Shown piece after piece: positions 3,101-54,504 of a stretch of 64,000 bases of DNA. The first letter of the stretch is position 1. Each line of letters starts with the position of its first letter. The notes beneath the pieces are model-generated. The model did not search any database. It was not told the DNA's origin and saw only the letters and a list, made by a program, of their open reading frames with translations. Source of the stretch: Botryllus schlosseri (taxonomy: Eukaryota); the NCBI GenBank assembly GCA_051294905.1, contig CM119371.1, forward strand, positions 30,630,001 through 30,694,000, given 5' to 3'. The position numbers and the translations under genes were made by a program.

Positions 3101-6100
3101 ACGAGATGAGCTGATCACCACTAAATGACTTCGCATTGTGTATGTTTGAGAGACTTTAGTGTCGACTCAATCCAATAAATTTACGAAGTGGAACGTAGAT
3201 CACTATGATGTCTGTCAGCTGAGACCCGACGGTAAGGTCGCCGCGATTGTAGATCTCAGCACTCCCAATGAAATAATATGTATATGCCTGTTTGATTTCG
3301 CGAGATCGCCTCATAATTAAACCCTCCAAAACGTGTCCATTTACAGACTCATATCAGTCGATAGCTATGAGCCTACTTTTCTTTAACGTAGTGCATACTT
3401 TGTGATTAGCTCCAAATATATTGAAAAGCAGACACGTTCCAATAAGGAGGCATTGTTCAGTACTCAGACGCTCGCTAGAGACCACACCACTATACGCGAC
3501 GTGAACCTACCCCGAGCTTACACCGGTCATCCAGATATAGTTTGGAGTATTTGGTTGCATTGAGGTAATAATTATATAAATATTCACCTTGTAAAACGCT
3601 GCAAATCAGAACATCATACCCAAAAATCGTAAATACTACCGAAGAGTCCGGTTTCAACGTATATTTGAAGTTCGATCATGGACAACGGAGCGGCTCTTTA
3701 CGCACTTTATTCCATTAAAAATGTATTGTAATGTTCCTACCGCATATCAACTTTTTGAATACGACCAGGGCGACGTATCCGACAATCCGGAATACGCCAA
3801 TCTCGTGTTGTCGCGAGGTAAAGTCTACGTCAGCGCTGGGAAGGCATCAGACGGGGACGCAGAATTCAACCGCATGTTGAGCGACCTTGTGGCACGCGGA
3901 GCCAAGCAAGACTACGTAGCGAAGCTTTCACGAAGATGGAAGAAAATCAAGAATCCTAGTAAGATACGCTTTGTTTTGCTTTTCGTGAATTAACGACGCC
4001 CCAAACAATAATTAATATACGGCACGGATTGATCATATTGTCCAGTCCTGACTTCGCTGGACTTTATTCTGGAATTTAGAGACTAGTTGACAGCTTATTG
4101 ATATACTGAATTAGTTCCTAATTTGTATTTTAAAAGCATTCCGGGCCCAAGTGCTATACTTTATAATTCTCAGAGTAGAAGGTATATTGTAAAATGTATT
4201 TTCTCGCTCATATATGATGGGACGATTGTAACACTGCGATATTGCGATTCAATGCATTATTTGTATCGCAATTATGCATCCAGGAGATTTAGTTTGTCGA
4301 TTTTGTGTTGGTCCTATAAAGCTGACTCGCGTAAGGATTGGAGACTCATGAAACTGCGCTTTGCATAGGGTTATCATATTTTGAGATCCTGAAACGATGA
4401 CACTTTTCATAAATTCTGAAAGCTCCATTGCTTAGAGTTGACTCCTGATTTCACCGAATTTCTACGAAAGTCTGACGCAAACATGTCGGATTCGCATTTG
4501 TCATGTCATTTTATTCCTTTTAAGAGAAAAAGAGGACAAATTCCTAAAGATAGGACATTTAGGCGTCCCCCGAGGACACTTTCAATTTATTTAAAAAAGT
4601 GGACAAATTCTCTTTAAAGAGGACGTATGGTAACTATACTTCACCTTCACTTTCGAAGAAATCCTTCCTTGACAAACATTATCTCTTATCTCCACATACG
4701 CAGTACAAATTATACTTGCCTCATGTGACTTACTTTAACTGCCTCCACTATACCTTCCATAATTGCTTTAAAGTCAGGTCTATCTCACTCTATGAAAACT
4801 CGTAATAGCACGGTAACGCAACTTTCAATATTCGACAGCATCTAGGGAAAAGAAAGAAACCGCAGACAGTTTGCAGGCCAGGGTAGCGAAAGTCCTTGCT
4901 TGGTTCCCGACTACTTACGGAGACGGCGAGCCGGACCTGAGTGGAGTTGGTCTTGGGATGTGAGTAACATCTTTTGTTAAATGTCATATATTGCGGTTCG
5001 TTACAGCTGGTCGCACGAATAATCAACTTGCCAGTTTCCAAGACTATGACATCGTAACGATAAAGTATGCAGGGTTACTCAACTGCTTTCCGCAAAGGTC
5101 CAGTTACTAGAATTTGTATTATGCTTAGGTCCGTTATACGTCTAATGAAATAATTTACATTCACAGAAATGTAATGCGGTATAACTATATGTAATCCGTT
5201 ATTGTGGTATTAGCAAAAGCAATACGCAATCTACGTATTAATTGTACTGCTAGTCACAAGAGAGAGAATTGGCCGCGTCCCTCCAGTTGTGTAGCCCTAA
5301 TGTGGACCATCATATTAGATGGAAAATGACAGTATGCATTTTGAGTATATTTACAACACGGCATTAAACTCATCAACGCTATCCAGCCAAAACTAGACTT
5401 ATATTTGTTATTCCTGAATTTGGATGGAGAAGAGCATGTTTCCGTAGTAACAGAATTTCGTACGTTGTGTGCAGGCCTTTCAGTAGCTTTGACATGAACC
5501 AAGTCCAGAAAGCATCACGGATCATCGATATGCTATTTACGAAATACGAAGAGACCCAGGACTTGATCGCCACCATCAGCTACGCTAACAAGCTGCAAGA
5601 AGGTCGGGAAGTGAACAATATGGTGTTGAGATGGGCGTTGGAGGTCTTTATTGTGCACTCCAATGACGCGAAAAGAGCTGGGATTCGGTGGGTTGGCGTT
5701 CGTATTGTATCGGAATTTGCAAATAGTGAAGTCACTCAATTGCAGAAATATTCGCACCCTCAAGTTTTGGGTGCTCTGTGGGGTCTTGACAGAGCAATCT
5801 CCTATTTAATGAAAAGTAAATCCATTTAGAAACACTCACTAATACAGGGGTTCTCAGCCATTTTTTGGCTCTGGCCCATTTTCCGGTTTGAAAATGTTCT
5901 GTGGCCCACCTCTTATCCTAGACTAAAGTCATAGTCCCGTTCAATGAGTGGTAATCGTCACTGCTGATATGGCTATTTCTCTAAAATATGCGCATTTTTC
6001 TCTTATACTAATCATATTTAAATGTAGGCCGGTGTGAACATGAAATCGCGTTAAGCGAGACGTAAATTTTCAAGATAAATAAATCTCCAACAAACAACCA

Positions 6101-9100
6101 ACGAAATAATTTTGGTCAACTTCGATCTCCCCCAATTGGGGGTTAGGGGATCGAAAGTCGTGGCCCTGGAAGATCGTATAACTCTTGTGTACATCCGCTG
6201 TTCCACTTATGTCACATGTCATGTCAGCATTAACTTCCAGTTATTATATAATCGGAATTATTTTCGTTGCTGTTGGCTGATCAGTTGTCATAGCCGGGGG
6301 ACAAAAGCTGCCGTTTCCCCTACCATTTGCGACTTCTACATACATTGTGACTCCATACGTGCCAGTAAGTCTCATCAGAGTCGGATGAAAAGCTTCATGT
6401 AGCATACGTACAATTCGATTATATGAATATATTTTCGAATATATGAACATAACAAATATAACTAAACTTTCACCAATTCTACAATTTTCCAAATAGCTCT
6501 GTGGCCCACCTAAATTACTCCTGTGGCCCACCAGTGGGCCATGGCCCACCCTTTGAGAACGCCTGCTCTAGTAGGTTACCGCTGGATATTTGTATTGTTG
6601 AGCATAAGTTTGCTGTAGTCACATATCATTGAGTTATGAAGGACAGGTCAACGGGCTGAGGAAATCGATGTAGCGTAACGCGGCACTGCGCTCTAATTAC
6701 AGCCATGTGAAATAGCCCCTGTATTGCGGCAACTGAATATATTTCTGAATATTGTACCTATTTGTAGTGGCATTAGTCTTACTTGAGTAGGTTTCAAACC
6801 TTTCATTTCATAATTCCGGTTGAAGTAGTTTTGAGAAGTCATTGGAAAGCAAGTCGACTGTTTTCATCACCCGGACGAAATGCGTGGATTATATCCCCGG
6901 AAGAAATGCGTGGATTATATCCCCGAAATAGAACGTATCGGTCAAGTGGTTTCTGTTTCCGCGTATCGCCCCATGAAAGGGCAGGACTGTATATATTATC
7001 ATGTGAATTGGCATAATAAACTAATTCGCACCATTTGGTATTGGTATAAAGGCTGAATTACGTACCAGAAAACGACACGAAGTTGATTTGCTCGAGCTCC
7101 CATAGTGAAAATATAGTGGACGCACTTATCAACGAACAATGTCATTCACAGTGTCCGTTATCAAATAATCACGTATTTCATCGACTTATACCATGGCGCA
7201 GAGTGGAAATAAGATAAACGGCACTTGTCAGTTCGAATTCTGCGTTCATTGTGGGTGTGCACAAGTCAAATACCACAATTCTTATACACAGATATATCCC
7301 AGAAATGTAGTGGGTTCTGCTCTCGCGCATCACCCTAAAAGCTGCAAAAAGTAGCGCACGTGAACAGAACCCACTACACCCGTTGAACACTTTACTATAA
7401 ATACGAATTATTGTATTTACCGTGCTTTAAACTCGTTCTGACCCATAGTAATGGCTGTGAAATCACAATATGTTGGCTGAAAGCACTGGTGATCTTGTGT
7501 GCATACTACACTACGATGTAAATCTGGTAAATATAAATATACACTTATGTTCCGCCCACGCATTTACAGTGTGCTGTATATACTTGGCACAAGTATATTA
7601 CTACCTCACTCCTAAACCTAAACTGGTTTACCTGACACTTTGTAACAGGTACCCTGAACCGGAAGTGATCGACCGCTCCATGGCCAGTGATGCGGCGATG
7701 GTCAGTACAAGACGCCAAGGTCAGCCCGCGGAGGATTGGATGAACTACTGGAGGAATGACGCTGACTTCAATTACCACCACAGGTTTGGGCTCTTCGTTC
7801 GTGTATTATGCCCGTATCGAGGTAGATTGACAGTTCGTGTTGTATTCGTTTATGCCAGGGGTCACCAACTAGTGGCTCGCGAGGTAACTTTCGAAATTAG
7901 TTATAATATCAAAAAACGAATTGCCCAAGTTATTTATTGCAAACTTGCAAGGACAGGCCATAATTTTATTAGGCTGACTGCGAAATCTAGGATGTTGATG
8001 ACTAAAATATCAGTTCCGACATATTTGCGTACCCAGGGACAAGACGCTTTTTCGTAGAACTCCGTATCTTGGAGTATAATATATCACGGCAGATTTATTT
8101 TCCGTAAATTTTTTCTTCGCATGATTTAATATAACTCAGACCTGGTATTATGAATTCTGATGTAGGTCCTCTCTTCGTGTACCACACACGAATAGATACG
8201 CAACTTCCTGTGGTTACGCTTGGGCAAACAGTGTCTCTTATTGCTGAGCAATCCAAAAGTAGAGTAATTGGTAGTGCTATAGCTGCGACCCGACAGTTGA
8301 AATCTAGTGCAATTGGTCTTAATCGAATGCTAGTTTCGCACTGATTCCGAAAATACAAATTAAAATCTTGTCAGGCCAATGGAACCACCTCGAAACAGCC
8401 CTCAAAATCTGTAAAGCGGCATCGTTCCAACTATGGCGGCACCATAACACAATGAACGTAACGATGACCAATTTCGCCTAGCAATTGTTCGGAACGATGC
8501 CGATTTTCAGACTTTGACTGCTATGTTGAGGTGGCTCCATTGCCCTGACAAGATTTTAATTTGTAAATTGGAGATCAGTGCAACACTAGCTTTCGATTAA
8601 AACCAGTTATTTTAAATTTCAGCGCTCGGGTCGACAGCCACAGCACTACCAATTACGCTACTTTTAGCTTGCTCAACAACATGAGACACTGCTTGCCCAA
8701 GCGTAAACACTGGGAGTTGCGTATCTATCTAGTAATATATAGTAAAATTCACTTCACCATATTCATATGGTCTCATATGATGTTTTGTATTTGGCTCATC
8801 TACTGCACCAAATTATATAATTGTTTTTGTTGTGACATCTATGGTCATTTTCCACCAGGCTGATGTATTCCATACCTTTGAAGACGAGTGATCTCACAGC
8901 AAACTTTCGTGTTTGGCTTTCTATAAGACACTTTAAAAGATGGTAGTCAAGGTCGCTATTCCAATCGACGCTTACAAGTAGCCTGATTCCGCAAGTTTGC
9001 AGTCAATTGCAACTAGGGTTGCATTCAAAACAAAAATCAATTTAAAACAAACATGTTTAAAACAAGGCCTTTGTTTAAAACCTGTTTTTTTTTGTTTCAA

Positions 9101-15100: not shown

Positions 15101-18100
15101 GTGACTTAATGCTTTCGCCCAACAGCTGGACTGGTGACGGCTGGAGCGGTCGCGCTTCCGATGACGAGGCTGTGTTGAGGACGTATCTCGGACCGGCTCA
15201 AAAGAAATACGAATGGGACAACAAGCTAGGACACGAGAAGTTCTATTATCACTTGCGTTTGCGAAGAAGCCCGGAGGCGCCGACAGGTAAACCTCAATAC
15301 CAGAGGTGGTCAGTAACGAAGACACCACCCACAAAAACAAGTAGTCAGCGTTGCTACTCATGTAGAAGTATTAATAAATTTCTACTCAATTACAAGTAGC
15401 GTGGTGAGATAGCGCAGTGGTATAATCCGCGGCTGCAACACCAATGGGTGCGGGTTCGAGTCCCGGTCGACTTCCGAATTCCGAAGTGTTGGAGGTTTAC
15501 CTAGGCTCCTCCTCGCCACCTCATCCGCGACAGCGGTGTCTTACAAAAGCCTAGAGGTGGGCCGTGCTATAAGTCGGCAGTTACGGAAAAATAAGAATAA
15601 TATCGGCCTGGTGTAAATGACCATAGTAGTCGACAAACACCATGATTACCCCAAAACAAACAAACAAGTAGCAGTAACGATATCCAAAACGTTTTGAAAC
15701 CAGATATGATCAGCAACGAAGAACTTTTAATTTTATGGATCACGCAACATGTGTCGCCTACTGGCATTAATTATTCAAATCAAGATTTTGCCTATACTTC
15801 CACCTGCATTTATCAGTTTTATAGGCAAAACTAGTTACATTGTAGACTTTGCGTTTTCCTGAAGTAGAAAGAAGTTACGGCGTCTGTTTCCATCGCGTTT
15901 ATGAGTGAAACAGTGTCAGTCATCCTTTTGCGTTAGTCGCGAAGACACATTCAGCAATTTCGATAATAGCCCATGTTCTATGGACTCCTGAAAGCATGCG
16001 ACGTTCATTCTAGTTCAGAGGTTCTCAACCTTTAGTAATCCGCGGAAAACTTGCGCCAATCTTCCAGCCTTCGCGGAACCCTAAATTTTCGCATCTACCG
16101 GGATACACATCTAACTACACATCTAATACATTACTTGCAGATTACTGGTCTTCAAAATGACCTGTGCATCATCAGAGTGGTAAAAGAACTAAATAACTGA
16201 AACAGTGATTCCCAAACTGTGTGACGCCACAGATTCTCACTTTCTCAGGTGTGCCGCGAGCTCTTTAAAATACTTTGGGATAAGAACTTCATACATATGC
16301 TTTCAAACCAGAGGTGGTCAAAGTAGTCATCGTCGCTACTCAAGTAGAAGTAGGAGCGGTGGTTAACAAGTAAGTTAGTAGGTATTCTACGCTTATTTTT
16401 GTCTACAAAACTGAAAACTGTCAAGTAGAAGTAGAAGTAGTCTAATATCATAACTACTTAAAAGTAGTGTGAGCAGGCAAAATCTACTTCAATTACTTCA
16501 AAAAGTAGATGTACTTCATTACTGACCAGTGACCACCTCTGATTCAAACTAGCATATGTGGCTTGAAAGCGCTCTAACTGCTACATAGCTGAATGCAGGG
16601 ACCAATATGATAGAATCAACATGGCATTGCCTTTGAGTAGGGTAATTTTTCCGTCATAATTGTCGAATATGGTCTTAAGTTCATTTCACGCTCCTATTGA
16701 ATCAGCTAGGGTTGCATTTAAAACAAAAATCAATATAAAACAGTGTTTCTCAAACTAGGGAGCGTGCCGCCTTTGGGGGTCGTGAAAGCAACAAAAGAGA
16801 GGTGCGAAGCCGCAGTTCGCAGGAAAGTTTTCGCGCTCCGCGCGATTCACCGCATGCTCGTGGTGTTTTCTCTATATATTGTCCTAAATCATATTCTAGA
16901 ATACTCTCAACAATATAACATTATACTTTAATGCCATCAGATTATTCGTTGGGATTGCTAACATTCTGATTTCTATCTTTAATATTTTGTGTTATCGCGA
17001 TAAGAGGGGGGGGGGGGAATTCTTCACTATCAAAAAGGGGGCGTGTCTAGAAACGTTTGAGCACCACTGATTTCAAACAAACATGTTTTAATCATGTTTT
17101 CACGCCTTTACGTCACGAATATGTAATTGTAACGTTACAGTGCATTTACAATTCAAAATGTAGGGTAAATATGGCCCTTTCCAGCTCCATGTTCAGGGGA
17201 CTGACGCGTTCCTGGAACTAGCTCCCTGAAACCCTAGTGTTCCTTGAAACACCGGTCACGAACCACTGTTCTAGTTCAATATGGGCACGAACGGCGACTA
17301 CTTTGACCACTTCTGGTTTATTTTACATCAATCGGCAATCGAAAATGAATGTCTGGTAGGGCTGTTCAAAAATAACTTCTTTCCCGGAGTCCGACCAACC
17401 ACCGATTAAATTGTCAGGTTACCCTTAAAAACGCTGAACACCAAATTGGGTTCAATTATGACCTTTTAACCAGTATAAGCCGCCGCAAAGCCAATTTAAA
17501 TTATGAAAAATTAAAAAGAAAATTAAACATTTTCTGCAACTCCATGAAACTGTTGAGTTGTCTTCTAAAACAATGCAAAACAAGTTTGACTCCATTCCCC
17601 CGTAGAAGCGGAGTTATTGCCGTTGCAAGTTTTGAATTTGCAAAAATAGCATTGACTGTGGATAATCACGAATTACAAATTAAAACCTCCAATAACTCTG
17701 CTTCTACGGGTTAGAATTGAACCAAATTTGTTTTTCATAATTTTTGAAAACTACTTAACAATTTAATGGGGTTGACAGAAAATTTTGAATTTTTTCAAAA
17801 ACTTTTCATGATAAATTAAAATTTTAAATTGACTTTGCGGCGGCTTATACTGTTTCGAATTCAACCAAATTTTATGTGTAGCGTTTTTAGGGATAACCTG
17901 ACAATTTAATCAGTGAATGACTGGAATTCGGGAAAAAAGTTTTCTGTGACCAGCCCTAACTGGCAAATCCTCGAGCATATATAATTTCAAAATGTGCATT
18001 CGGTGGAAGGATACGTACGCATAATTTCAGCAGTGGCCACGTTCTTAATCACATGGCATCTTCACGACTGCCGCAAAATTACCAATAACACGACACACAG

Positions 18101-21100
18101 CTACTTTTTGCGAAAATATATTATGTTACTGTGATACAGCAGCTATTTCATTGTTGTAACCACAAATGCACTCATAAAAGGATTGCAAACATATCCGAAG
18201 ACTACTCTTTCTCAACAAAATCCAAAGACTAAAAAGTAAATAATTTATCAAAAATGTGCCGCGTAGAGGTGGAACATGGTAACGTGAGTAAATATCGCAA
18301 GAAGGTAAATTGTACTTGATTATTGCAAATACTATTCATACCTTCATTTAATAGTCTCGACATTGCACGCTTTTACGTCCAATGAGCGCCTTTCATGACG
18401 CCTTTTATTACTTCAATGAAAGCATTATTTTTTGTATAACTACAGGACAGGACATTCCGGTAACCATTCGTATCTTCATTTGTCCAAGAAGACGACAATC
18501 GGACAGAAGAATGTGGATTGAAATGGACAAATTTGTCTGCAGGTGGGTGATGTGAGAAATGATCAAGAACATCGGTTATCCGAATATAATGCACTCGCTA
18601 AAAAAGAGATCATACTTATAGCCAATCTGACATCTTGGCAGTGAAACGTACCGCCGCTGTTTTACTCTTTTATTTGATTACCATTTATTTTGTTCACATT
18701 TCCCGGGTAATTATAATGATCGCTTCAGTGTTTTTCTGAAGGACTCGGACCGATGTACGGTAAAACACACGTGTATCTGAAAATAGAACAACTCGCGTTT
18801 TCCAAAAGAACCCTCATTTCGTACAGCGAACGCCTAACTTCACCAATCACGACGGCTCAGTATGTTGTATAGTCTAATTGCAAACTGTATCCCAACTGCA
18901 TTAGTATAGAGAAAGAGAGAGAGAGAGTCTTAATTTTCATCCAATCAAAATACATAACACACGGCAGTGGTGGTGGTACAGAAAATATTATTGCACAGTA
19001 TTCGGTATTAGATAGGAATAATCGATAAGACCGTGAAGGTCATCTAGTCTGATCACACCAGCATCAAACAGGTACACTTGACTCTAAACAGTCTGGCTGT
19101 AACAAAGGTTACAGTAGTTAAAAAATTAAAATAGAAGAAAAATTAAACGATGGTAGCAAATGATCAATGAAGCAATGTCTGGGCGAGGTAGGGCAACAGG
19201 TAGGGCAACAATGTAAGTGTAACGATAAGAGGTGATCAAGTAGGGCTTTTTTGAATCTATTATAAGGCAATTCACGGACAGGTGGTGGTAATTCAGTTCA
19301 GATGATAGGTCCCGAGTAGTTGATAGATCTCTTAGTTGGGTTGCTATTGGGTGGGGGTAAGTATATATTTCCTTTAGACGAGGATCTCTTGTAGTTGACG
19401 AGTACACTGTAGGTAGAGTGTGCATACCTGAAAAGACGTTTCAATGTGTAAAAACAGTTTTGCCGAACGATATGAAATTTCAAACACGCTGAGCATGCTT
19501 CGAATCAAACGTGAGCGTGTAAAATTTATCATGCTCCACTCCAAGACTCTAAAATAGCCTATGTAGGCATACTTGTTAAATTAAACAGATGTGTCGAATA
19601 CGGACGTCAATAACATAGCCTTCGGCGTACATGCGATACGACGGATATCTTCGAAGTTGTAGTAAAACATACAATACTAACATAAAGTTTTCTGTGGAAT
19701 TAGACGTGGTCGAATGAGTCATCGTTGCAAATCAAGTAAAAGTAGAGCAATACTATGAATTTCCACTCAATAAATAAATAAAAAGTAGCAATCTACAAGT
19801 CGGGTAAAACTATTTCCAGCGGAAGTACAAAATGAAAGGACAGAAATGTATTCGAGTAAATAGTTTGGAAAAGTACATTTGGTCAAGGCATCGTAGACAT
19901 TATACTAATGAAATACAAACTTCGGGACATCTTCCACCTTTCGTGTTCTATTACAATACTGATACACTCTTTAATTTGTTCATTAGCATCGAATCTGGTA
20001 CGGACCACATCGAAGTGACCAGGGCCGACGTGCATTCGTCGGTCATCAAACGACTTCGCCGAGACTTGGAGGGGAGCGAGCCCGATTCGGAAAGGAGATT
20101 CGTGCGAACCCTTGGCGGCTTCTGCGAATGCGGGTGGCCGTACGATATGCTTCTACCCAGAGGAACGGCTGTAAGTATAGTCATGAGCGCCTTAATTACT
20201 AAAAATGTGAACATCTTAAAATATTTCGATATTTGGTGTATGCCAATATCGATGTACGGTAGTCGCAATTCGACATTCATAATGCTATCCTCTTCACACG
20301 GACGGTCGGTACCGCTTTCTCACCCTAAGCCAGAATCTTACCACAAGACAAGGGGTGGGCAACCTGCGACAGTAGAAGGAATTTTTTGCGGCGGTGGCGT
20401 GGACCAGTCATTCAATTGGTATGTGTTGGCGGCAGTCGACATCAAAATTTAATTTAGGAATAGACTCCCGAATTATTGAGAGATTAAGTAATATTCAAAA
20501 GATTTATTCGATCTTGAAACTTTATTAGCGCTACGCGCGATTCAATTTTTAATTTGGTAGCGCCGTTTGCAATCTGATCCCCAGAGTGTAGATGCGAACA
20601 GCGGAGGAAAATGATGCACCCCAAATAGAAATAACAACTTGGAAACGTGTGCTCATCAAGAAAGATATTTGTTTCCGGTACGTTCGGGATATTCCAATAC
20701 CTTAACACTATACCGACAATACTGATGTGAGATCAAGAAAAACAGCATGCAACAATGTGACTTATAACAATTGGTCCACCCGAAGATGCATCATCATTTA
20801 TGACTTGCCGTAAATTTTCAAAAAAATTAACCTCCATCAACTCTACCGGTGTTTCTGATCACATGGGCTGATAAAGGGTAAATATTCGATAGTTATACAT
20901 GAAACTATTAATATTAATGACGAAATTCATTCGTGAATCTGACAAAAATTTCGCGCTTGGCGTAACCATAACCACTCCCAGTAACTATTCATGATGTGAC
21001 CACTGGCTATTTCGACGCGTATAGTAAGACGAAATAAAGAAGTAGAGTAGTCCGGAGTTGACCGTAAATGTACATGGACAATGGACAGTTTAACGAGTAT

Positions 21101-24100
21101 TTGGTGTCCAGTAAGTTCATTACGACTATTTCTTGGAATGCGGCCGTAGGCTACATAAGTAATCGAAGTACGGACGTGAAAAGCAAAAAGGTTGCCCACA
21201 CCTGCCCTAGACTAACGAGCCGACGGATGCGTTGTATGAACTATTTTCAAAAGTTTTATTTGAAAATATCTCCTCAATTCATATTTATCGTGGTTAATTA
21301 AAAAATGTATTGTCTTGATTAGAGCCCGACCGATTATCGGCTCGCCGATAATATCGAGTCGATATCACGCTTGGAGAGAAATATCGGTATCGGCCATTGA
21401 AGGTAAAAAAAATATCGGCCATTTTCGTGACGTCACAACATGGTGGCAGAGAGTCAAGAGAAGTCGATAAAAGACGTGAGGTCGGCCAAATATAAAAATA
21501 AATGGCCAAGCTGCATATAGAGCATACTGCATACAGGGTAGTAGGTGTGTCTATCTGAAAAATATTATAGATAACTAACCACCGTTATGCCCCACTGACT
21601 TCGTGGGAATCCCCCTGTAGTAATCGATCACCAAAGACAGAGAGCCAGAGATGCCACTCCTGGGTTTTTCCACCCAGATCTGGGTTTCTCGAGCATCACC
21701 TGGGTTTCTGGGTTTTTGTGCTTGAAATCTGGGTTTTTTTCAACATCATGTTTGTCAGGTCAATTTTACGGCGCAAAATTGATTATTAGATTAGTAAGAT
21801 CTTCTAATGTCGACGGATTCCACTGTGATTGAAACGGCAGAGTCCAAAGAGACCCATTTACTATTAAAATGAGAGGTCTTGGTGTGATGCGATAGAGCTT
21901 CATTGAATACTGACTACTAGGTCGCCGAAAGTCATGTTCACAGGGCAACTCTGATTTAGGACTTGAATGCTACCGGTCCGGTAGCGCTGCAACAAATTCG
22001 TTGTGTGTCAGTAAATAGTACCTCCAAGACAAAAGCTACGTCGAAGGGTACGTGTAATAGTTGTATAATTACAATCCTAAATGGTCCGGATAAGTCCTAA
22101 ATTAATGATTGTGATTGGTGATTGATTGCACTGTACCATAATTTCACACTACATGCGTTTTAGAAGTCCTAAACTGTTATTTTCTCGTGCTCTGCCAAAT
22201 ATGTATGTGGGTATAAAGTCGAAGACAATCATAACATAATCATACGGTACGGTCTTGACATCTTGTCAAGGAGATTTACTACTAATACTACTAAATGAAT
22301 ACAGTCCATCCTCAAGATTACCGGACCACGACTGACCTATCGATCTCGCTTCCCATGACATGCCGCCCTATTTCTTGTCGCTTCCTTTTTCTATACTATC
22401 TTCTTTACTTTCATTCAGTGTGCATGCCTTCTCTTTACATCGCCTAGGCCAAGGTGGGTGTCTGATTCCATAAACAACTCCTAGTCGCTTCGACATCTTC
22501 CTTTCTTTTCATTGTATCGCATTTTTGTGGTGTATTGAACTGATAAAATTGCTAATAAACCAATGATGATGATTATTGTTAAATGAAAATGTACTCTTAA
22601 TTTCATGATTTGGCAGTTTCTTTTTCGACTAAAACAGCCCAGATAAAAGTGTTTGTCCCAGGTTTAATGAATCGAAAGCTATTTTCAATCTATCTGGTCA
22701 GCTCGCAGTCACTAGAATACCTTACAATCATCCTCACAATAGATGGGGATTAGCATTGTTACTAACATTACGAATATATAATACACTACGTATTGACCCC
22801 CCATACCGAATGCCTGGTAGCAATGTGTCGAGAGGAAAACATCATATTTCGATGGATTTGCTCATTTAACTGAGCAACGCATATTATAGTATGGAAATGA
22901 ACCGTTGGGATTTCAATATCAAGGGCTAAAACTTCTTCTATGTCCGTACAACTGTCATTGATGACTCTCAGTCACTGTTTTACAGTTATATCATAGAAAT
23001 TTGAGTGAAATAGCGGATCTGGGTTTTTCTGGTTTTTTTTAACGTCCAAATCTGGGTTTTTCCAAATATCTCAGTGGCATCTCTGCAGAGAGCAGCTGGA
23101 TGGATACGGATAGTTGTCTGCAGAAGATTTCAATCAGTAAGAGAAATGAGAACTTCAATCATGCTGGACTGACCCTCGTAATGATAGAGAAAAGCGTCGC
23201 GTCGAAACATTTCCCGGTTCGGTACCAACAGAGCTGATTATACCGGTAATGTATGAAGTCGTCTGACTGAGGCCTGCGGCTGCGGGGCCACCATGATAGG
23301 AAATATGCGAGCATAGAGGGCAAGAAAATCAAGCAAACGTGGAGTAAAGCCAATAATTGATACGAAAATTTTTGATTCCATGATGACATTGGCCAATTCT
23401 GACAAAAGAGTGTAAAATATTGATCAATTGATTGTTGAAATGCTGGTCAAGGCCCATGGGGGATGGGTGGAGCAGTTGCAGACGTGGACAATTTGAGTTC
23501 TTTTGCACATTCTCTTCAGCTATTTGTTAATGATGTGCTGAAGGCTCCAGGTGCATTGTCAGAAGATTATCAATATCAATATTTGGTTAAACCATTGAAG
23601 GAAAGATCCCCTGCAAGGGAGCGGTGGAACCGAAATGAAGAAAGATTTCCTGCTGTGCCACTAACTATGCTACCAAGTGAAAGACTGCTCACTGTGTTTA
23701 GTACTATATACATCATCTATGGATGGAAGACCACAGAAGTTCACTCCTTGGAGAAAGGGCCGATAAATTGTGCTTCGTGAACTGTAATCTGCAACTGCTG
23801 GATTGGTGCTTTTGATACATTTTTATAGTTCCTTGATCATTTATTTCATGTTCAAGCATATCAATGGCTGTAAAGTTGTTGAGAGAAATGCTCTTGAGGT
23901 GTTAAATATGGGCCTTGAGCTAGATTTCATATCTTTTGAATATCGGCTGAATATATCGGGGTTATCGGTGGAGGTACTGGATATCGGTCTTATCGGTATC
24001 GGCTCAGAAATCCAATATCGGTCGGGCTCTAGTCTTGATACGGCCTCGTTCGAGATTTCGACCCGGGACCTGTCGCATTTAAAGCAAGAATCACACCCCT

Positions 24101-27100
24101 AGACCAACAAGCTGACGGATGAGTTGTCTGAACTATTTTCAGGAGGTTTATGTGAAAAGAACATCTGAATTCATAGATATCGTCGTTAAGTAAAAATGTA
24201 TAGTCTTGACGAGGGCTCGTCCGGGATTTGAACCCGGGACCTCTCGCACCCAAAACGAGAATCATACCCCTAGACCAGGGGTCTCCAACACGCGGCCCGC
24301 GAGGTCCTATTTTGCGGCCCGCGACCTGATTTGAAAAAAATTCAGAAAAACGCTTAGTAAATCATGTTGAAACGCTAAAATTGATTTCAGTTGAAACATA
24401 ATGTTGTTGTTTTTCAAAGTGAGCCATTCTATGTGCCCACTATCACTATTACTCACTAGTTGATACGGCTTCGGCATGGTAATATCATTCCATGGATGAA
24501 GAATTTGCTGGTACGAATGGGCATATTGCCTTGACGTGCAATGGCCCACCACTGCCAAGACCGAGACGCCTGCAAAACGACTTCGGGCGCTCCAAAAGAC
24601 CATGCTTTACGAGGAGATAGTTGTCTAGCAAGTAGGCCTACCGTGTATAGCTAACCCCAATATTGGTTCTTCAATCCATGGGTGGCCAATCTGCAGCAGT
24701 AGAAGGAAAATTATGCGGCTGTCGACACTTGTAATAACAACCCTAAGTTTTCACAGATACCCCCTGCATCAGCTGTATCTGGGAATCTGATCACATTGGC
24801 CGAGAAAGGATAAATATTTTATAGTAATATGTGAAACTATACTAATATTTATTGACGAAATTCACTCATGAACATGAAAAATTTTTCGCCCTTCGCGCGA
24901 CTACAGATTGGTTCTCTGTGGCTCTTTACAACATAACTACTAACGATTTGGTGCGCATAGTAAGCCGATATGTGCATATAGATTAGTTCGGAGTGTACCG
25001 GCAATGGACATGGACATGATAACGTGGGTATTTGGCCCCAGCTAGTTTATCACGACTAACCACCGGTATGCGGCCGCGGGCTACATGAGTACGCGAAATG
25101 CGGCTGTGAATTACAAAAATGTTGGCCACCCCTGTTTTAGCGGCTAAAGAGTGTTGTCATTGTCAGGTATCGTGTACAGCTCATAGTCCAAAATATAATG
25201 ACATTGATGATCATGATACTTTTTGTTGTATTTGTGTTTGTTCAATAAAATATTAGTTCTTTTGTGGTGACTATAACCGTCGCCTATGTTAGAAAGCACA
25301 GCGTTGTAATAACGTAGAGTTATCAGACGTGGTTATTGAACTGCGTTGCCTACTTTTATATCGATATTGATGTCATGCGGCCCGCGGCCTCCAGGAATTT
25401 GGAAAAGTGGCCCGCGACCTATTTTGAGTTGGCGACCCCTGCCCTAGACCAACGAGCCGACGTGTGAGTGGCCTGAATTATTTTTCCAAGTTTAAATTGA
25501 AAATAACTCCTGAATTCATAGGTATCGTGGTTAATTAAAAACTATAGTCTTGGCACGGGTTCGTCTGGGATTTGAGCCCGGGACCTCTTGCAGTCAAAGT
25601 ATGAATCATATCCCTAGCTGGACCAACGTGGCGACGGATTTGTGGCCTGACTTATTTCCCAAGTTTTATTTGAAAATATCTCTTGAATTAATAGATATCG
25701 CAATTAACTAAAAACGGAGGCCATAGTCTTGACAAGGGCTCGTCCGGGATTTGAACCCGGAACCTCCCGCACACAAAGCGAGAATCATACCTCTAGACCA
25801 GAGGTCTCAAACAAGCGTCCCACGAGAGCATTTTGTGCCGCACACGACGGCATTTTGGAATTTCAAGTATTCAACAATATATTCAAGTGCCATATATCTT
25901 TTTTAGATCTAAGAACTTGAAGTTCACGCTGAAACTGCCATAAAAATTACTGAAATCTCAACAAACTACACTAACACATCACTTTTAAAAGCTACCATGC
26001 GGTAGAAGATCAGCTATGACGTCACATTTCTAGTTCATGATGATAAAACATGACCCGTTGATGATTCGTGACTGAAAATTGTGATTTGGATTGGTACGAC
26101 CTACTCGTAAAATTACTCGATTTGGGATTGACTGGGTGAATAAATAAAAATGACTCGAGATGAGTCAAACGTTAAAATTAGAGAAGGACTTGCGACTCGG
26201 AACGGGGTAAGTAAAAATGTATAGTCTTGACAAGGGCTCGTCCGGGATTTGAACCCGGGACCTCTCGCACCCTAAGCGAGAATCATACCCCTAGACCAAC
26301 GAGCCGACGGACTCGTGGCCGGAATTATTTTCGCAATAACTCCTCAATTCATAGATATCGTGGTTAATTAAAAAAAAGAAAAACTATAGACTTGACACGG
26401 GCTCGCTAAGTCTTTAATATATCGCCTTTATCCATTGCCAGCGACCAATGAGTCAGATTTAAACTCCATATGGGTATCCAAACCATAAGCATATTTTCAA
26501 AACGGACTACATGACTCATCTGGGGTCTTCCGCGATTCGGACCCAAGACCTCACGCAACTGTTGCGCAAATTGCCATCTGGAGCATGCTATATTTATTCA
26601 GGCCGGAGAGGACTATGTGCTTTGCGTCATTGCTACCGACAACCGTGTGGATAGTATTGATGTCCGCACCACTTGTGGAAGCATGAGTTACTGCGGCGCA
26701 AGAGGGCAGCGGTATCCCGACTCCCGACACATGGGTTACCCGTTCTGTAATCCGATAACTCTCGGAAGTGAAAGGGTAAGTAATGGTAATTGGTGTTGAA
26801 AAACCATATAAAAAACCTTGTAGTTTATGGCAACATTTTAGCTCTTAGCGACGCCTCTGCAGAAAAGTGGTCTCTGGTGGACATGCTTACCCTGCACAGT
26901 CCGGGAATAAAATATCATGCTTCGAATCGAAACCATCGGCTTCACTTTAATACGCTGGATCCATTCTATGTAGGCCTACATTGTGTAGGGCATTTGAGTC
27001 AAAAAGTTAAATATCCTATGTCCAGGCTACGGCTACTTTCACAAGTATTAGACAGTGACGTCATTACTCAAGCGTCTACTTGAGTACCGAAACCGACTAG

Positions 27101-38620: not shown

Positions 38621-39492
38621 CAGGGGTGGGCAACATACGGCCCGCGAAGGGATTTTGCCCGGCCCGCGGACAGTTTTCCGTTTTACATGATAATGTGGCC
38701 CGCGGCCCTAGTCTGCCGAGAATTCCCACTACTTGGTTACAACGTCAAATTTTAGTGACTGCATGTTATTATATACGTATATGCGCAGCGTGCTAGAGTG
38801 GAGCTTACGCTAAAGTTCGTCGAAGCGAGAAGACTTGCAATATCGGCATTTGCGATGTACTCAACGCTAATGTCGTTTGTGGTAATCATGGTGTTTGTCG
38901 ACTACAATGGTCAATTACACCAGGCTGATATTTCTTATTTTTCATTCTGTAACCGCCGACTTGTAGCACGGCACACTTCTAGGCTTTTGTAAGACGAAAA
39001 CACTGCTTATACCAGGGGTCGCCAACTCAAAACGGGCCGCGGGCCACTTTTCAAATTTCGTAGAGGTCGCGGACCGCATGAATTCATTATCGAGATTTCT
39101 CAGGCCACACAGTTGAACAGCGATGCTATCTCGTCACCTACTCAACCCTAATGAATTTATATGTTGGTACATTAGGGGTACCGGGGTTATCGATCTCCTT
39201 GAAATCTTAATTGAGGATTGCACCGTGTGTTGATTGATCAGATAGAAGCAGACATGGCGGCGCCTGTATGACAATGCTATTCTCAAATCCACGTGGTCTT
39301 CGTCATTATCGGCGAGAAATGGCTTTGAAGTGACGTTACTGTCGTTAAAATGTATTCATTAAATGCGATTTATCCCTTGTATATGTGAAATGTGGATAAA
39401 TGGGCGAATAATGTATCGATTCATCAATCCGGCCCGCCAAGTACTTTATTTTCCTATATCCGGCCCGCCGACTCGAGAAGTTGCCCCCACTG
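38621..39492. mobile_element. Second family-D element in opposite orientation, inserted in the next tRNA-Pro unit
   Basis: Follows GACTCGTTGGTCTAGGG (38604-38620). About 38750-39492 is the reverse complement of ~35184-36260 minus the 35625-36036 insert. The right TSD is missing. Confidence 0.85.
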
Positions 39493-39507
39493 GACGATGA
39501 ATCCGTC

Positions 39508-39579
39508 GGCTCGTTGGTCTAGGGGTATGATTCTCGCTTCGGGTGCGAGAGGACCCGGGTTCAAATCCCGGACGAGCCC
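39508..39579 (+). tRNA. trnP: tRNA-Pro(CGG), intact
   Basis: 72 nt, anticodon loop TTCGGGT, one variable-loop change (GGACCC instead of GGTCCC), T-run downstream. Confidence 0.92.
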
Positions 39580-39680
39580 GTGTCATGACTATATTTTTTT
39601 TAAATCTACCACGATATCTATGAATTCAGGAGGTATTTACAAATAAAAGTTTAAAATCTAGTTCAGACAGTGCACCCGTC

Positions 39681-40870
39681 GGCTCGTTGGTCTAGGGCAG
39701 GGGTTCTCAAAGGGTGGGCCACAGAGCATTTAGAGGTGGGCCACAGAGCTATATTTAGAAAATTGCAGAATTAATGTAAGTTTAGGTATATTTCTTATGT
39801 TATTCGCTAAAAATATATTCGTATTATCTAATTATACGTAGGCTACATATAAAGCTTTCATCCGACTCTGATTAGACGTAGTGGCACGTATGAAGTCAGT
39901 ATGTACAAATCCAAAACGTTAGGGCTTTTTCTACTGGCTATAACAACCTACTGCTAACAGCAACTAAAATAATTTCAAGTGTATTATAGCTGGAAGATAA
40001 TGCTGATGTAACCAAGTATTCCGGCAGGGTCATATGTCGTATGCCGTCAAAGGGGTATGTAATGAAATCGCAATGAAGTGCAATTGATGTGCAGATTTAC
40101 TGTACTTCTGCAGGCCGTATTATTGCAAGCTAAAAATAGCCATAATTGCAAATTATTAGTAACTTCTGAAGTATACTGCACCACCACAACGAATCTTAAT
40201 GGATTGAGGATTCATCGGAGCGCATTGTACATAATGAAAGAGTCGCAGGAATTGATTGCATCATTGGATTGAATATTCTGACATCGCAACTTCAGTTGTT
40301 TTGGTACAAGACATACAAAGTACATCATACATATTGAAAAATCTTTCTCCACTACTCTGTATTACGCCATTCACCAATGAATTGTTTGATGGTGGCCCAG
40401 AATGATTATAATATTCCCCACAATAGTATCACTAAAGTCCCAATCACACAGTGTGGGGATCTGATGATCGTGTTTCGCGACGCAAATGGAGCAGCGGCAG
40501 AAAATAATCTACGTAGGAGTTTCAGCTCATGATCTACCAGGGCCGTAACTGCCGCGTCCACACCCCCAATTGGAAGAGCTCGAAGGGGCCCAAGATTATT
40601 TCGTTGGTAGTTTGTTGGAGGATATTTATTCAGCTTATAATTTTTTTTCGCGCTTCGCGCGATATCATTTCCCGATACATCGAGATTTAAATATCACTAG
40701 TTAGAGAAAAATACGCATATTTTAGAGAAATGGGCATATCGCCGCTGTCCATGACCACTCATTAAACAGGATTGTGACTGTAAGATATCAGGGGGGCCAC
40801 AGCACATTTTTAAACCGAAAATGGGCCACGGCAAAGAAAGGGCTGAGAACCCCTGGTCTAGGGGTATGAT
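39681..40870 (+). pseudogene. tRNA-Pro split by a MITE, 3' truncated
   Basis: GGCTCGTTGGTCTAGGG | element | GTCTAGGGGTATGAT, then unrelated sequence. Confidence 0.88.
39698..40855. mobile_element. Non-autonomous hAT element, family E
   Basis: TIR CAGGGGTTCTCA, perfect TSD GTCTAGGG. Same family as 5845-6565. Confidence 0.92.
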
Positions 40871-53503: not shown

Positions 53504-54504
53504 CAGGGGTCACCAACACGCGGCCCGCGGGCCGCATGCGGCCCGCGACTTGATTTGAAAGTTCGGAAGAAACCTAAGAAAACCTATTTTGAAAAGCTGA
53601 AATTGACTACAGTTTCCACATATTGTTGTTGCTATTGTTTCAAAATAAGCTATTCACCGGTGCCCAACATCACTATTCCTCACTAACTAAAACGGCTTTG
53701 GCAATGTCAACTGCATTCCATCGAGGGAGATATAACCAACTGATATGAATGGGCAGGGCTTATTGCCTTGACGTGCAATGGCCCAAACACTGCCAAGACT
53801 GAAACGTTTGGAAAACGGCATCGGGCAGTGGTTCTCAAACTGGGGGGCGTGCCCCTCTTGTGGGGGTGTGAAAGCATCCGAAAAGGGCGCGGAACTGCGT
53901 TCATTTGTATTTTTTTCGCGCCCCGCGCGATTTACATCATATACAAATCTTGTGTATAGTCCGGAATTCATATAATAGAATCCTCCCATCAATTAATCAT
54001 AACCTTCCATGCAATCAAACTATCCGTTGGGATTGTTAGCATTGTAGTTGCATTTTGTGATATGACGGTAAGGGGGGAGTGAAATTTTTCAGTATCATAA
54101 AGGGGGCGTGTATAAAAAAGTTAGAGAATCACTGACTTAGGGCTTTCCGCAAGGTCAAGCTTAACGTGGAGATGGTCTTTCACTTAGTAACGTATCTCGC
54201 TAGCCCCAATATCGATTCCTTAGTCGCTAGAGCGTTTCCAGGAATCGAGCACAGCTCAGAGTTCAAAATAAAATGAAATTGAGGATAATGATTTTTGTTG
54301 CATTTGTATTCCTTTAATAAAATATTACTTACTTTGTGGTCACTATGCCCATTGTCTGTGTTAGGTAGCACGGCGTTGTAGACTACTGACGTTGAGTTTG
54401 AAAACGTTGTTGCGTAGTTTATATCGATATTGAAGACATGCGGCCCGCGGCTGTTATGAAATTTTAAAAGTGGCCCGCAACCCATTTTGAGTTGGCGACC
54501 CCTG
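53504..54504. mobile_element. Family-B hAT element at a non-tRNA site
   Basis: TIR CAGGGGTC(A/G)CCAAC, perfect TSD CTGTAATG, homologous to 24276-25441. Contains a nested CAGTGG element. Confidence 0.9.

Follow-up and report, generated by a model that had tools for sequence, protein, structure and literature searches.

For human hAT elements, the described target is NTCTAGAN within a 14-bp motif, WWNNTYTARANNWW, and single-position hotspots that are struck in both orientations have been found in the MIR3 repeat (Levy, Schwartz and Ast 2010, PMC2836564). Dada elements make duplications of 6-7 bp, are without terminal inverted repeats and have nearly exclusive RNA-gene targets (Kojima and Jurka 2013, PMC3706591; 2022 fish survey, PMC8869645), and the yeast retrotransposons Ty1-Ty4 are found upstream of tRNA genes, protein-tethered to the RNA polymerase III (Pol III) machinery (PMC13273895). 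Here, we analyze a stretch of 64,000 nucleotides from Botryllus schlosseri (the window: C1:30630001-30694000, where C1 is contig CM119371.1 of an assembly of 495.5 Mb) in which elements that appear to be non-autonomous hAT transposons interrupt proline tRNA genes (tRNA-Pro) at one and the same nucleotide of the A box. Among the top-ranked literature matches, none described hAT elements with an insertion hotspot in the A box of a tRNA gene, and the available parts of PMC4316626 and PMC7337890 contain nothing on hAT insertion into tRNA genes.

Results

A BLAST search with the intact 72-nt gene located 13 tRNA-Pro units in the window, arranged in two arrays of opposite orientation with about 172 bp per unit (Table 1). 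Six of these units are interrupted by inserts (A, B, C, D1, D2 and E), and all six breaks fall directly after GGCTCGTTGGTCTAGGG, between tRNA positions 9 and 10, with positions 10-17 (GTCTAGGG) as the duplicated stretch. The target site lies inside what we take to be the A box (TGGTCTAGGGG, positions 8-18). All 12 occurrences of this 8-mer in the window are within tRNA-Pro units (0.74 expected from shuffling), and a 17-mer from the 5' half of the gene has 8 window matches at no more than one mismatch, with 0 expected. These results confirm an earlier description of the window made from its letters alone (the sequence-only reading), which had reported six interrupted units and three perfect 8-bp duplications, which we find at B, D1 and E.

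That reading had also counted five element families and independent insertion events. In pairwise BLAST, inserts of different letters (A to E) could not be aligned with one another except for an A-like element nested inside B and a B-like terminus within D (80-84% identity over ~100 bp), and insert C had no match elsewhere in the window; the count of five families is retained with these caveats. D1 and D2 are 80-88% identical and mutually inverted, and the tRNA part next to the right end of D is the 3' one in D1 and the 5' one in D2; therefore, neither is a simple copy of the other. The inversion with different flanks and the dissimilarity of A to E both speak for independent events and exclude derivation of the inserts from one amplified insertion.

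Table 1. tRNA-Pro units, inserts and related elements in the window (window coordinates; duplications are the words flanking each element).
Feature	Position	Strand	Length (bp)	Ends	Duplication	Remarks
tRNA-Pro array 1	20321-26408	minus				7 units; three split by inserts A, B and C
Intact tRNA-Pro	26234-26305	minus				array 1
Degenerate tRNA-Pro units	24040-24108; 25561-25640	minus				array 1, two units
3' fragment of tRNA-Pro	~26398-26408	minus				array 1
tRNA-Pro array 2	34838-40870	plus				6 units; three split by inserts D1, D2 and E
tRNA-Pro 3' part	34838-34896	plus				edge of array 2
Intact tRNA-Pro (AGG)	34996-35067	plus				array 2
Intact tRNA-Pro (CGG)	39508-39579	plus				array 2
Insert A	20350-21204		855	AAGGGGTGGGCAACC / CAGGTGTGGGCAACC	CACAAGAC (20342-20349), CCCTAGAC (21205-21212)	decayed duplication, 2 mismatches
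Insert B	24276-25441		1166	CAGGGGTCTCCAAC / CAGGGGTCGCCAAC	CCCTAGAC (24268-24275, 25442-25449)	perfect 8-bp duplication
A-like element nested in B	~24677-25134					70% identity (BLAST)
Insert C	25799-~26206			CAGAGGTCTCAAAC		truncated, single junction; end adjoins CTCTAGAC of the tRNA 3' part (25736-25798); far end lost by deletion, with the 5' half of the tRNA and most of the spacer
Insert D1	35184-38439		3256		GTCTAGGG (35176-35183, 38440-38447)	perfect 8-bp duplication
Element nested in D1	~35623-36036
Element nested in D1	36302-38323		2022	CAGGGCTGTGGAGTCGG	GTAAGCAA	many GACTCC repeats
Element splitting 36302-38323	37218-38063			CAGGGGTGGGCAAC	ATCTATAT/ATCTGTAT
Insert D2	38621-39492		872			D1 family, inverted; ends at 39492, not 39497; 5' junction after GACTCGTTGGTCTAGGG; 3' duplication and tRNA part deleted; far end adjoins spacer sequence, ~150 bp deleted
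Insert E	39698-40855		1158	CAGGGGTTCTCAAAGG / CAGGGGTTCTCAGCCC	GTCTAGGG (39690-39697, 40856-40863)	perfect 8-bp duplication
B-like copy, non-tRNA site	53504-54504				CTGTAATG	~75% identity to B
E-like copy, non-tRNA site	5845-6532					75-77% identity to E
Different hAT-like element	21320-24031			TAGAGCCCGACCGAT	GTCTTGAT	array 1 spacer, outside the A box; 8-bp duplication
Element nested in 21320-24031	21646-23085			CAGAGATGCCAC	CAGAGAGC	end type of the autonomous hAT copy L041:535-3621

Interruption at this nucleotide extends beyond the window. Genome-wide, there are 92 exact copies of the 17-mer (control 0), and a pattern search found it followed by CAG[G/T]GG, the end of an element, in 17 of the 92 (18.5%). 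By fetching 200 kb around 73 exact sites, which took in a tRNA-Pro array of 52 kb lying 57 kb downstream of the window, and adding the six sites of the window, we could read 79 of the 92, the remaining 13 being classified by pattern lists only; an element end stood in place of GTATG at 19 of these 79. When mismatches were allowed across the 264 kb examined, 42 of 130 tRNA-Pro units were interrupted and 88 were intact, and the break always fell at the same nucleotide. The 68 junction termini formed 38 clusters (at least 80% identity), and the interrupting elements comprise ~17 families in at least 22 family-by-orientation combinations, with both orientations seen for families D, E, G, H and P. 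Dispersed tRNA-Pro copies are interrupted as well (on contigs C1, C2, C7, C8, C9, C11 and C16). Some elements recur in one form: family J was found at least five times in the large array in the same orientation, a J/F chimera four times, and G, N and P twice each; collapsing possible duplicates leaves 15 of the 92 exact sites occupied.

At 10 of 94 uninterrupted units, the site carries footprint-like scars, short insertions made up of repeated pieces of the 8-mer (GTCTAGGCTTCTAGGG, GTCTAGGCCTAGGG, GTCTAGGCCCTAGGG, GT[C/T]TAGCTAGGG, GTCTCTAGGG and GTCTCTATGG, with GTCTAGCTAGGG among the alleles). Footprints of hAT excision retain portions of both duplication copies. The scars match what cut-and-paste excision would leave, and the shortest could be due to slippage instead. 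In the window, the A box of the degenerate unit at 25561-25640 reads GTCCAGCTAGGG and by eye resembles the footprint-type allele GTCTAGCTAGGG of the neighbouring large array.

The hAT superfamily is defined by 8-bp target duplications and short terminal inverted repeats that start with CAG or TAG, and its non-autonomous members would be moved by a transposase with a hAT dimerisation domain from an autonomous relative that has the same ends. The elements studied here have inverted ends of the form CAG[G/T]GG...CC[A/C]CTG, complementary at 12-16 of 16 positions, and perfect 8-bp duplications flank at least 20 elements in the fetched loci in addition to those of the window. A central TA is present in all non-tRNA duplications sampled, and TCTAGAN followed directly by CAGKGG occurs 3233 times in the genome, versus 50 for the reversed control. 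Judged from their ends and target sites, the elements fit non-autonomous hAT transposons with NTCTAGAN-like targets. No protein-coding capacity was found in the six inserts, in which the longest open reading frame (ORF) starting with ATG has at most 98 aa. The genome does contain hAT transposases: the dimerisation domain PF05699 gave at least 150 scored matches from 2620 candidates, many of them in ORFs of 600-934 aa, and one locus (L041:535-3621) holds a complete autonomous hAT copy of 3087 bp with a 648-aa ORF and CAGAGATGG ends. Two further hAT transposase loci had no clear ends. MITEs (miniature transposable elements with inverted repeats) in the strict sense are non-coding and small, a few hundred bp in length. 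The sequence-only reading had labelled the inserts as MITEs, which we do not adopt: the elements are indeed non-coding, but uninterrupted copies measure 855-1166 bp in the window and ~870-1930 bp elsewhere, and "non-autonomous hAT element" is the safer term.

The 8-mer is also struck outside tRNA genes. Genome-wide, 120 junctions join GTCTAGGG directly to CAGKGG (control 2), namely 21 in tRNA-Pro, 3 in tRNA-Glu and ~96 elsewhere, and all 29 of the non-tRNA junctions that we inspected have unrelated flanks. Together with the B-like and E-like copies at non-tRNA sites in the window, this bears out the earlier statement that targeting is not exclusive. Since GTCTAGGG occurs 5793 times in the genome, ~96 of ~5470 non-tRNA copies (~1.7%) are occupied, and for the canonical NTCTAGAN class the figure is ~1617 of ~65200 (~2.5%). 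The 18.5% occupancy of exact tRNA-Pro sites exceeds that of non-tRNA GTCTAGGG roughly 10-fold (p=1e-11, computed with 16/88 vs 95/5450), so that occupancy of the bare 8-mer is far from equal inside and outside tRNA-Pro, and the hotspot that the sequence-only reading had proposed is genuine.

A comparison of bare 8-mers is too coarse, however, because target choice reaches beyond the duplicated 8 bp. In tRNA-Pro, the 8-mer is preceded by TTG, and 27 junctions genome-wide have TTG, GTCTAGGG and CAGKGG in succession: 20 in tRNA-Pro and 7 verified outside tRNA genes. The word TTGGTCTAGGG occurs 210 times in the genome (control 79), ~85 of these outside tRNA genes, and occupancy of non-tRNA TTG-flanked sites is 7/~85 (8.2%), approximately fivefold over other non-tRNA sites (p=0.0006). 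ATG-flanked non-tRNA sites are occupied in 5-6 of ~79 cases. In the much larger NTCTAGAN class, TG stands 5' of 428 of 3233 junctions (13.2%), compared with ~6.4% of empty sites, after the elements' own CTG ends were subtracted. At loci L037 and L067, two elements lie back to back with one common 8-bp word (...CCACTG, the 8-mer, CAGTGG...), and further such pairs are found among NTCTAGAN junctions, e.g. at C1:24190535/24190539; an element end with its duplication makes a TG-flanked site of the favoured kind for a second insertion. Two non-tRNA loci, L066 and L069, have different element families next to a similar flank (...AGTAGTCTTT..A..AGACACC.ACCTTG, followed by GTCTAGGG), which suggests another hotspot-bearing repeat.

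A second tRNA family provides a natural control. tRNA-Glu(CTC), with the sequence TCCCAGATG-GTCTAGGG-GTCAGGATTCC as derived from junction loci, shares with tRNA-Pro both the 8-mer and its A-box register and is likewise found in tandem arrays. We estimate ~87 such sites, being 166 occurrences of ATGGTCTAGGG minus ~79 expected generic ones, and only 3 of the ~87 (3.4%) are followed by CAGKGG, which is no higher than at generic ATG-flanked sites; seen from the 3' side of the gene, junctions occur at 2 of 48. This low occupancy indicates that a position within the A box of a Pol III gene in an array does not by itself ensure frequent hits, which speaks against the Pol III or TFIIIC idea. As a caveat, the tRNA-Glu arrays, of which those at C3:34422000-34468000 and C5:13480000-13511000 are large and very regular in spacing, may be younger than the activity of the elements. 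One interrupted tRNA-Glu unit (L077) has its 5' half on one side, and a Glu(TTC)-like 3' part with GCCTAGGG about 1.85 kb away (L053) may be the other side of the same unit. A D-arm motif taken as that of tRNA-Glu had only 3 and 2 matches and was discarded as not belonging to the tRNA-Glu of this genome. For the two variants GCCTAGGGGTCAGGATTCC and GTCTAGGGGTAGGATTCC, both single-copy, 1 match apiece was obtained.

Other tRNA-like sequences are hit in the same register. A pattern of an element end, 20-48 nt and a B box gave 208 matches (control 13), and 19 of 20 inspected matches outside tRNA-Pro were true junctions, all 19 within a tRNA-like A box and at position 9/10; the target duplications included GTGTAGTG, GCGTAGTG and GTGTAATG. 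Such a common register would be expected from a preference for TG followed by a TA-centred 8-mer.

The 3' fragments left by the breaks and the arrays themselves show several further features. Every 3' fragment of a split tRNA-Pro retains a complete A box and a B box, and the downstream fragment would keep the internal promoter because the element end ...CTG together with the duplication rebuilds the complete A box. ARAGORN called four tRNA-Pro genes in the window, and one of them, tRNA-Pro(TGG) at 24213-24283 (minus), consists of the 3' part of a split gene and the terminal bases of insert B; this false call arises because ...CTG mimics U8-G9. The J/F chimeric inserts (L002-L005, at positions 15442, 17621, 32396 and 44074 of the large array and regularly spaced) combine a family J end bearing the left duplication GTCTAGAG with a family F end bearing the right duplication GTCTAGGG, and look like the product of a deletion between two adjacent insertions with subsequent array amplification. 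At the edge of the large array, two tRNA-Pro 3' parts stand head to head at the target site (L001:170-310, C1:30750170-30750310; ...CATACCCCTAGA meeting CTCTAGGGGTATG...), a palindromic junction that might derive from aberrant transposition or an unresolved hairpin.

Discussion

We propose, with a probability of roughly 60%, that the hotspot results from an extended sequence preference of the transposase meeting a near-optimal site that is present in many copies. Many families of non-autonomous hAT elements would make staggered cuts of 8 bp and integrate at TA-centred NTCTAGNN-type targets, with a stronger preference for those in which TG directly precedes the 8-mer to be duplicated. Positions 7-20 of tRNA-Pro (TTG-GTCTAGGG-GTA) would offer such a near-optimal site within the A box of more than 100 gene copies, and tRNA-Pro would be struck recurrently at one nucleotide because of this supply. 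Related transposases would hit that nucleotide again and again, in both orientations and in arrays as well as dispersed copies, each insertion splitting the gene between positions 9 and 10 and duplicating positions 10-17. Some elements would later have been excised, leaving scars, and duplication within the arrays would subsequently have copied some of the interrupted units. We infer both the agent, a hAT transposase, and the main cause, its preference for certain sequences.

It is important to point out that several observations weigh against this explanation. tRNA-Pro remains 2.2-fold above TTG-flanked non-tRNA sites (17/92 vs 7/~85, p=0.05), a figure that depends on non-tRNA flanked denominators estimated from reversed-pattern controls and the listed quarter of the genome, and that becomes weaker still if array duplicates are collapsed to 15 events. 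Occupancy of tRNA-Pro is also fivefold over that of tRNA-Glu (p=0.0016), and the ages of the sites differ between arrays. Any further preference would have to reside in other bases. On the right side, where tRNA-Pro has GTA, the ~50 non-tRNA sites with this flank include 0-1 occupied ones and are a set too small for gauging an effect, and all but at most one of the 19 GTA-flanked junctions lie in tRNA-Pro or tRNA-Glu. A small set of 10 non-tRNA elements having other duplications showed TG at 1 of 20 half-sites, which is no enrichment. Finally, none of the three hAT transposase loci examined yielded an autonomous element whose ends are CAG[G/T]GG, and the complete copy at L041 has both different ends and a duplication that is not TA-centred. 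Candidate sources of the residual excess in tRNA-Pro are the right flank, the history of the arrays and chromatin.

The last of these would mean that the Pol III context, i.e. open, nucleosome-free DNA or DNA bound by TFIIIC and Pol III, adds to the sequence preference, as the sequence-only reading had suggested. The 2.2-fold residue would agree with such a contribution, as would the 19 of 20 tRNA-like matches that proved to be junctions at A-box position 9/10, and the hAT element Hermes has been reported to insert in nucleosome-free regions (PMC13273895, PMC7337890). We nevertheless regard it as doubtful, and on balance a Pol III or TFIIIC contribution lacks support. tRNA-Glu, likewise transcribed by Pol III, arranged in tandem and carrying the 8-mer in the register of tRNA-Pro, is still hit at only 3 of ~87 sites, matching for TTG brings the tRNA-Pro excess down to 2.2-fold, and ~80% of the insertions at GTCTAGGG lie outside tRNA genes. 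The shared register is expected from sequence in any case, given that T8 G9 and a TA-centred 8-mer are part of the A-box consensus. Tethering to Pol III in the strict sense, with enrichment independent of local sequence, is not supported by the comparison of tRNA-Glu (3/~87) with generic ATG-flanked sites (5-6/~79).

Alternatively, the dynamics of the arrays could account for the excess, if old, decaying tRNA-Pro arrays gather and multiply insertions and recently homogenised arrays such as those of tRNA-Glu have purged them. Unequal crossing-over, segmental duplication and gene conversion offer routes for multiplication, for which the same-orientation recurrence of J, J/F, G, N and P speaks; copies within families are 12-30% divergent, so that the activity is old, and the tRNA-Glu arrays are very regularly spaced. 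This account is unlikely to be the main one, since at least 22 family-by-orientation combinations are present, dispersed single tRNA-Pro genes are interrupted on seven contigs, 15 of 92 exact sites remain occupied after duplicates are collapsed, and the single nucleotide shared by all events is left unexplained. There is next to no chance that the six window inserts, or most interrupted units, stem from one ancestral insertion amplified with the array: some units of the neighbouring array were clearly duplicated along with their insert, but A to E cannot be aligned apart from short termini and one nested or composite segment, the termini form 38 clusters genome-wide, and the inverted D1 and D2 present the same element end to different tRNA flanks, which excludes a single amplified insertion for the window. 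Equally hard to credit is that the elements are Dada-type transposons specific to small-RNA genes: Dada families do occur in tRNA genes, often at positions 8-13 in the A box, but the 8-bp duplications and clear inverted ends seen here are unlike those of Dada (PMC3706591, PMC8869645), and most insertions at GTCTAGGG are not in RNA genes.

Returning to the proposed sequence preference, our findings indicate that the preferred target of a transposase can be matched by a promoter element that belongs to an essential multicopy gene, with the consequence that a fifth to a third of tRNA-Pro copies are destroyed at one nucleotide. The resulting breaks reshape the arrays, as seen in the deletions beside C and D2, the chimeric elements and the inverted pairs. 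More broadly, and as a tentative possibility, the Pol III A box (T8 G9 plus G-Y-N-T-A-G-N-G) might itself be the extended target of this hAT clade, in which case tRNA genes and tRNA-derived repeats would in general act as insertion sinks, and the decay of tRNA genes and the turnover of arrays in this animal lineage would be driven in large part by hAT activity, perhaps helped by open Pol III chromatin at tRNA-Pro. The locus also carries two cautions. Apparent Pol III targeting is mostly explained by sequence once sites with matching flanks and another tRNA family that has this 8-mer are considered, and an element end that mimics U8-G9 makes a split gene callable as a tRNA, as at 24213-24283. 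For work on hAT target choice, the tRNA-Pro genes provide a natural and well-replicated target sequence.

When compared with known systems, the tRNA-Pro hotspot resembles Dada in that DNA transposons lie in tRNA genes, often in the A box, and in multicopy genes where one loss costs little. Dada families, however, have family-specific, near-exclusive RNA-gene targets, whereas the elements described here are mostly at non-tRNA sites and have inverted ends and 8-bp duplications. With Ty1-Ty4 they share the association with tRNA genes, but they are DNA transposons whose insertions lie within the gene and at a sequence motif, and the control with tRNA-Glu speaks against tethering. The likeness is closest to human hAT elements of the MER1 type, in which the 8-bp TA-centred duplication is of the NTCTAGAN type, the preference reaches beyond the duplication, and a multicopy sequence bearing the motif is struck at one position in both orientations (PMC2836564). 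Unlike the human repeats, the target here is a functional gene family with the site in its internal promoter, the elements belong to ~17 families, and between about a fifth and a third of gene copies are interrupted; the flank signal also differs, being TG directly 5' of the duplication here and WW at -3/-2 in human (PMC2836564). In kind, the tRNA-Pro hotspot would appear to match the single-position hAT hotspots of human repeats (PMC2836564), so that a sequence-driven hAT hotspot is of a known type and the tRNA-Pro case is a new example of it.

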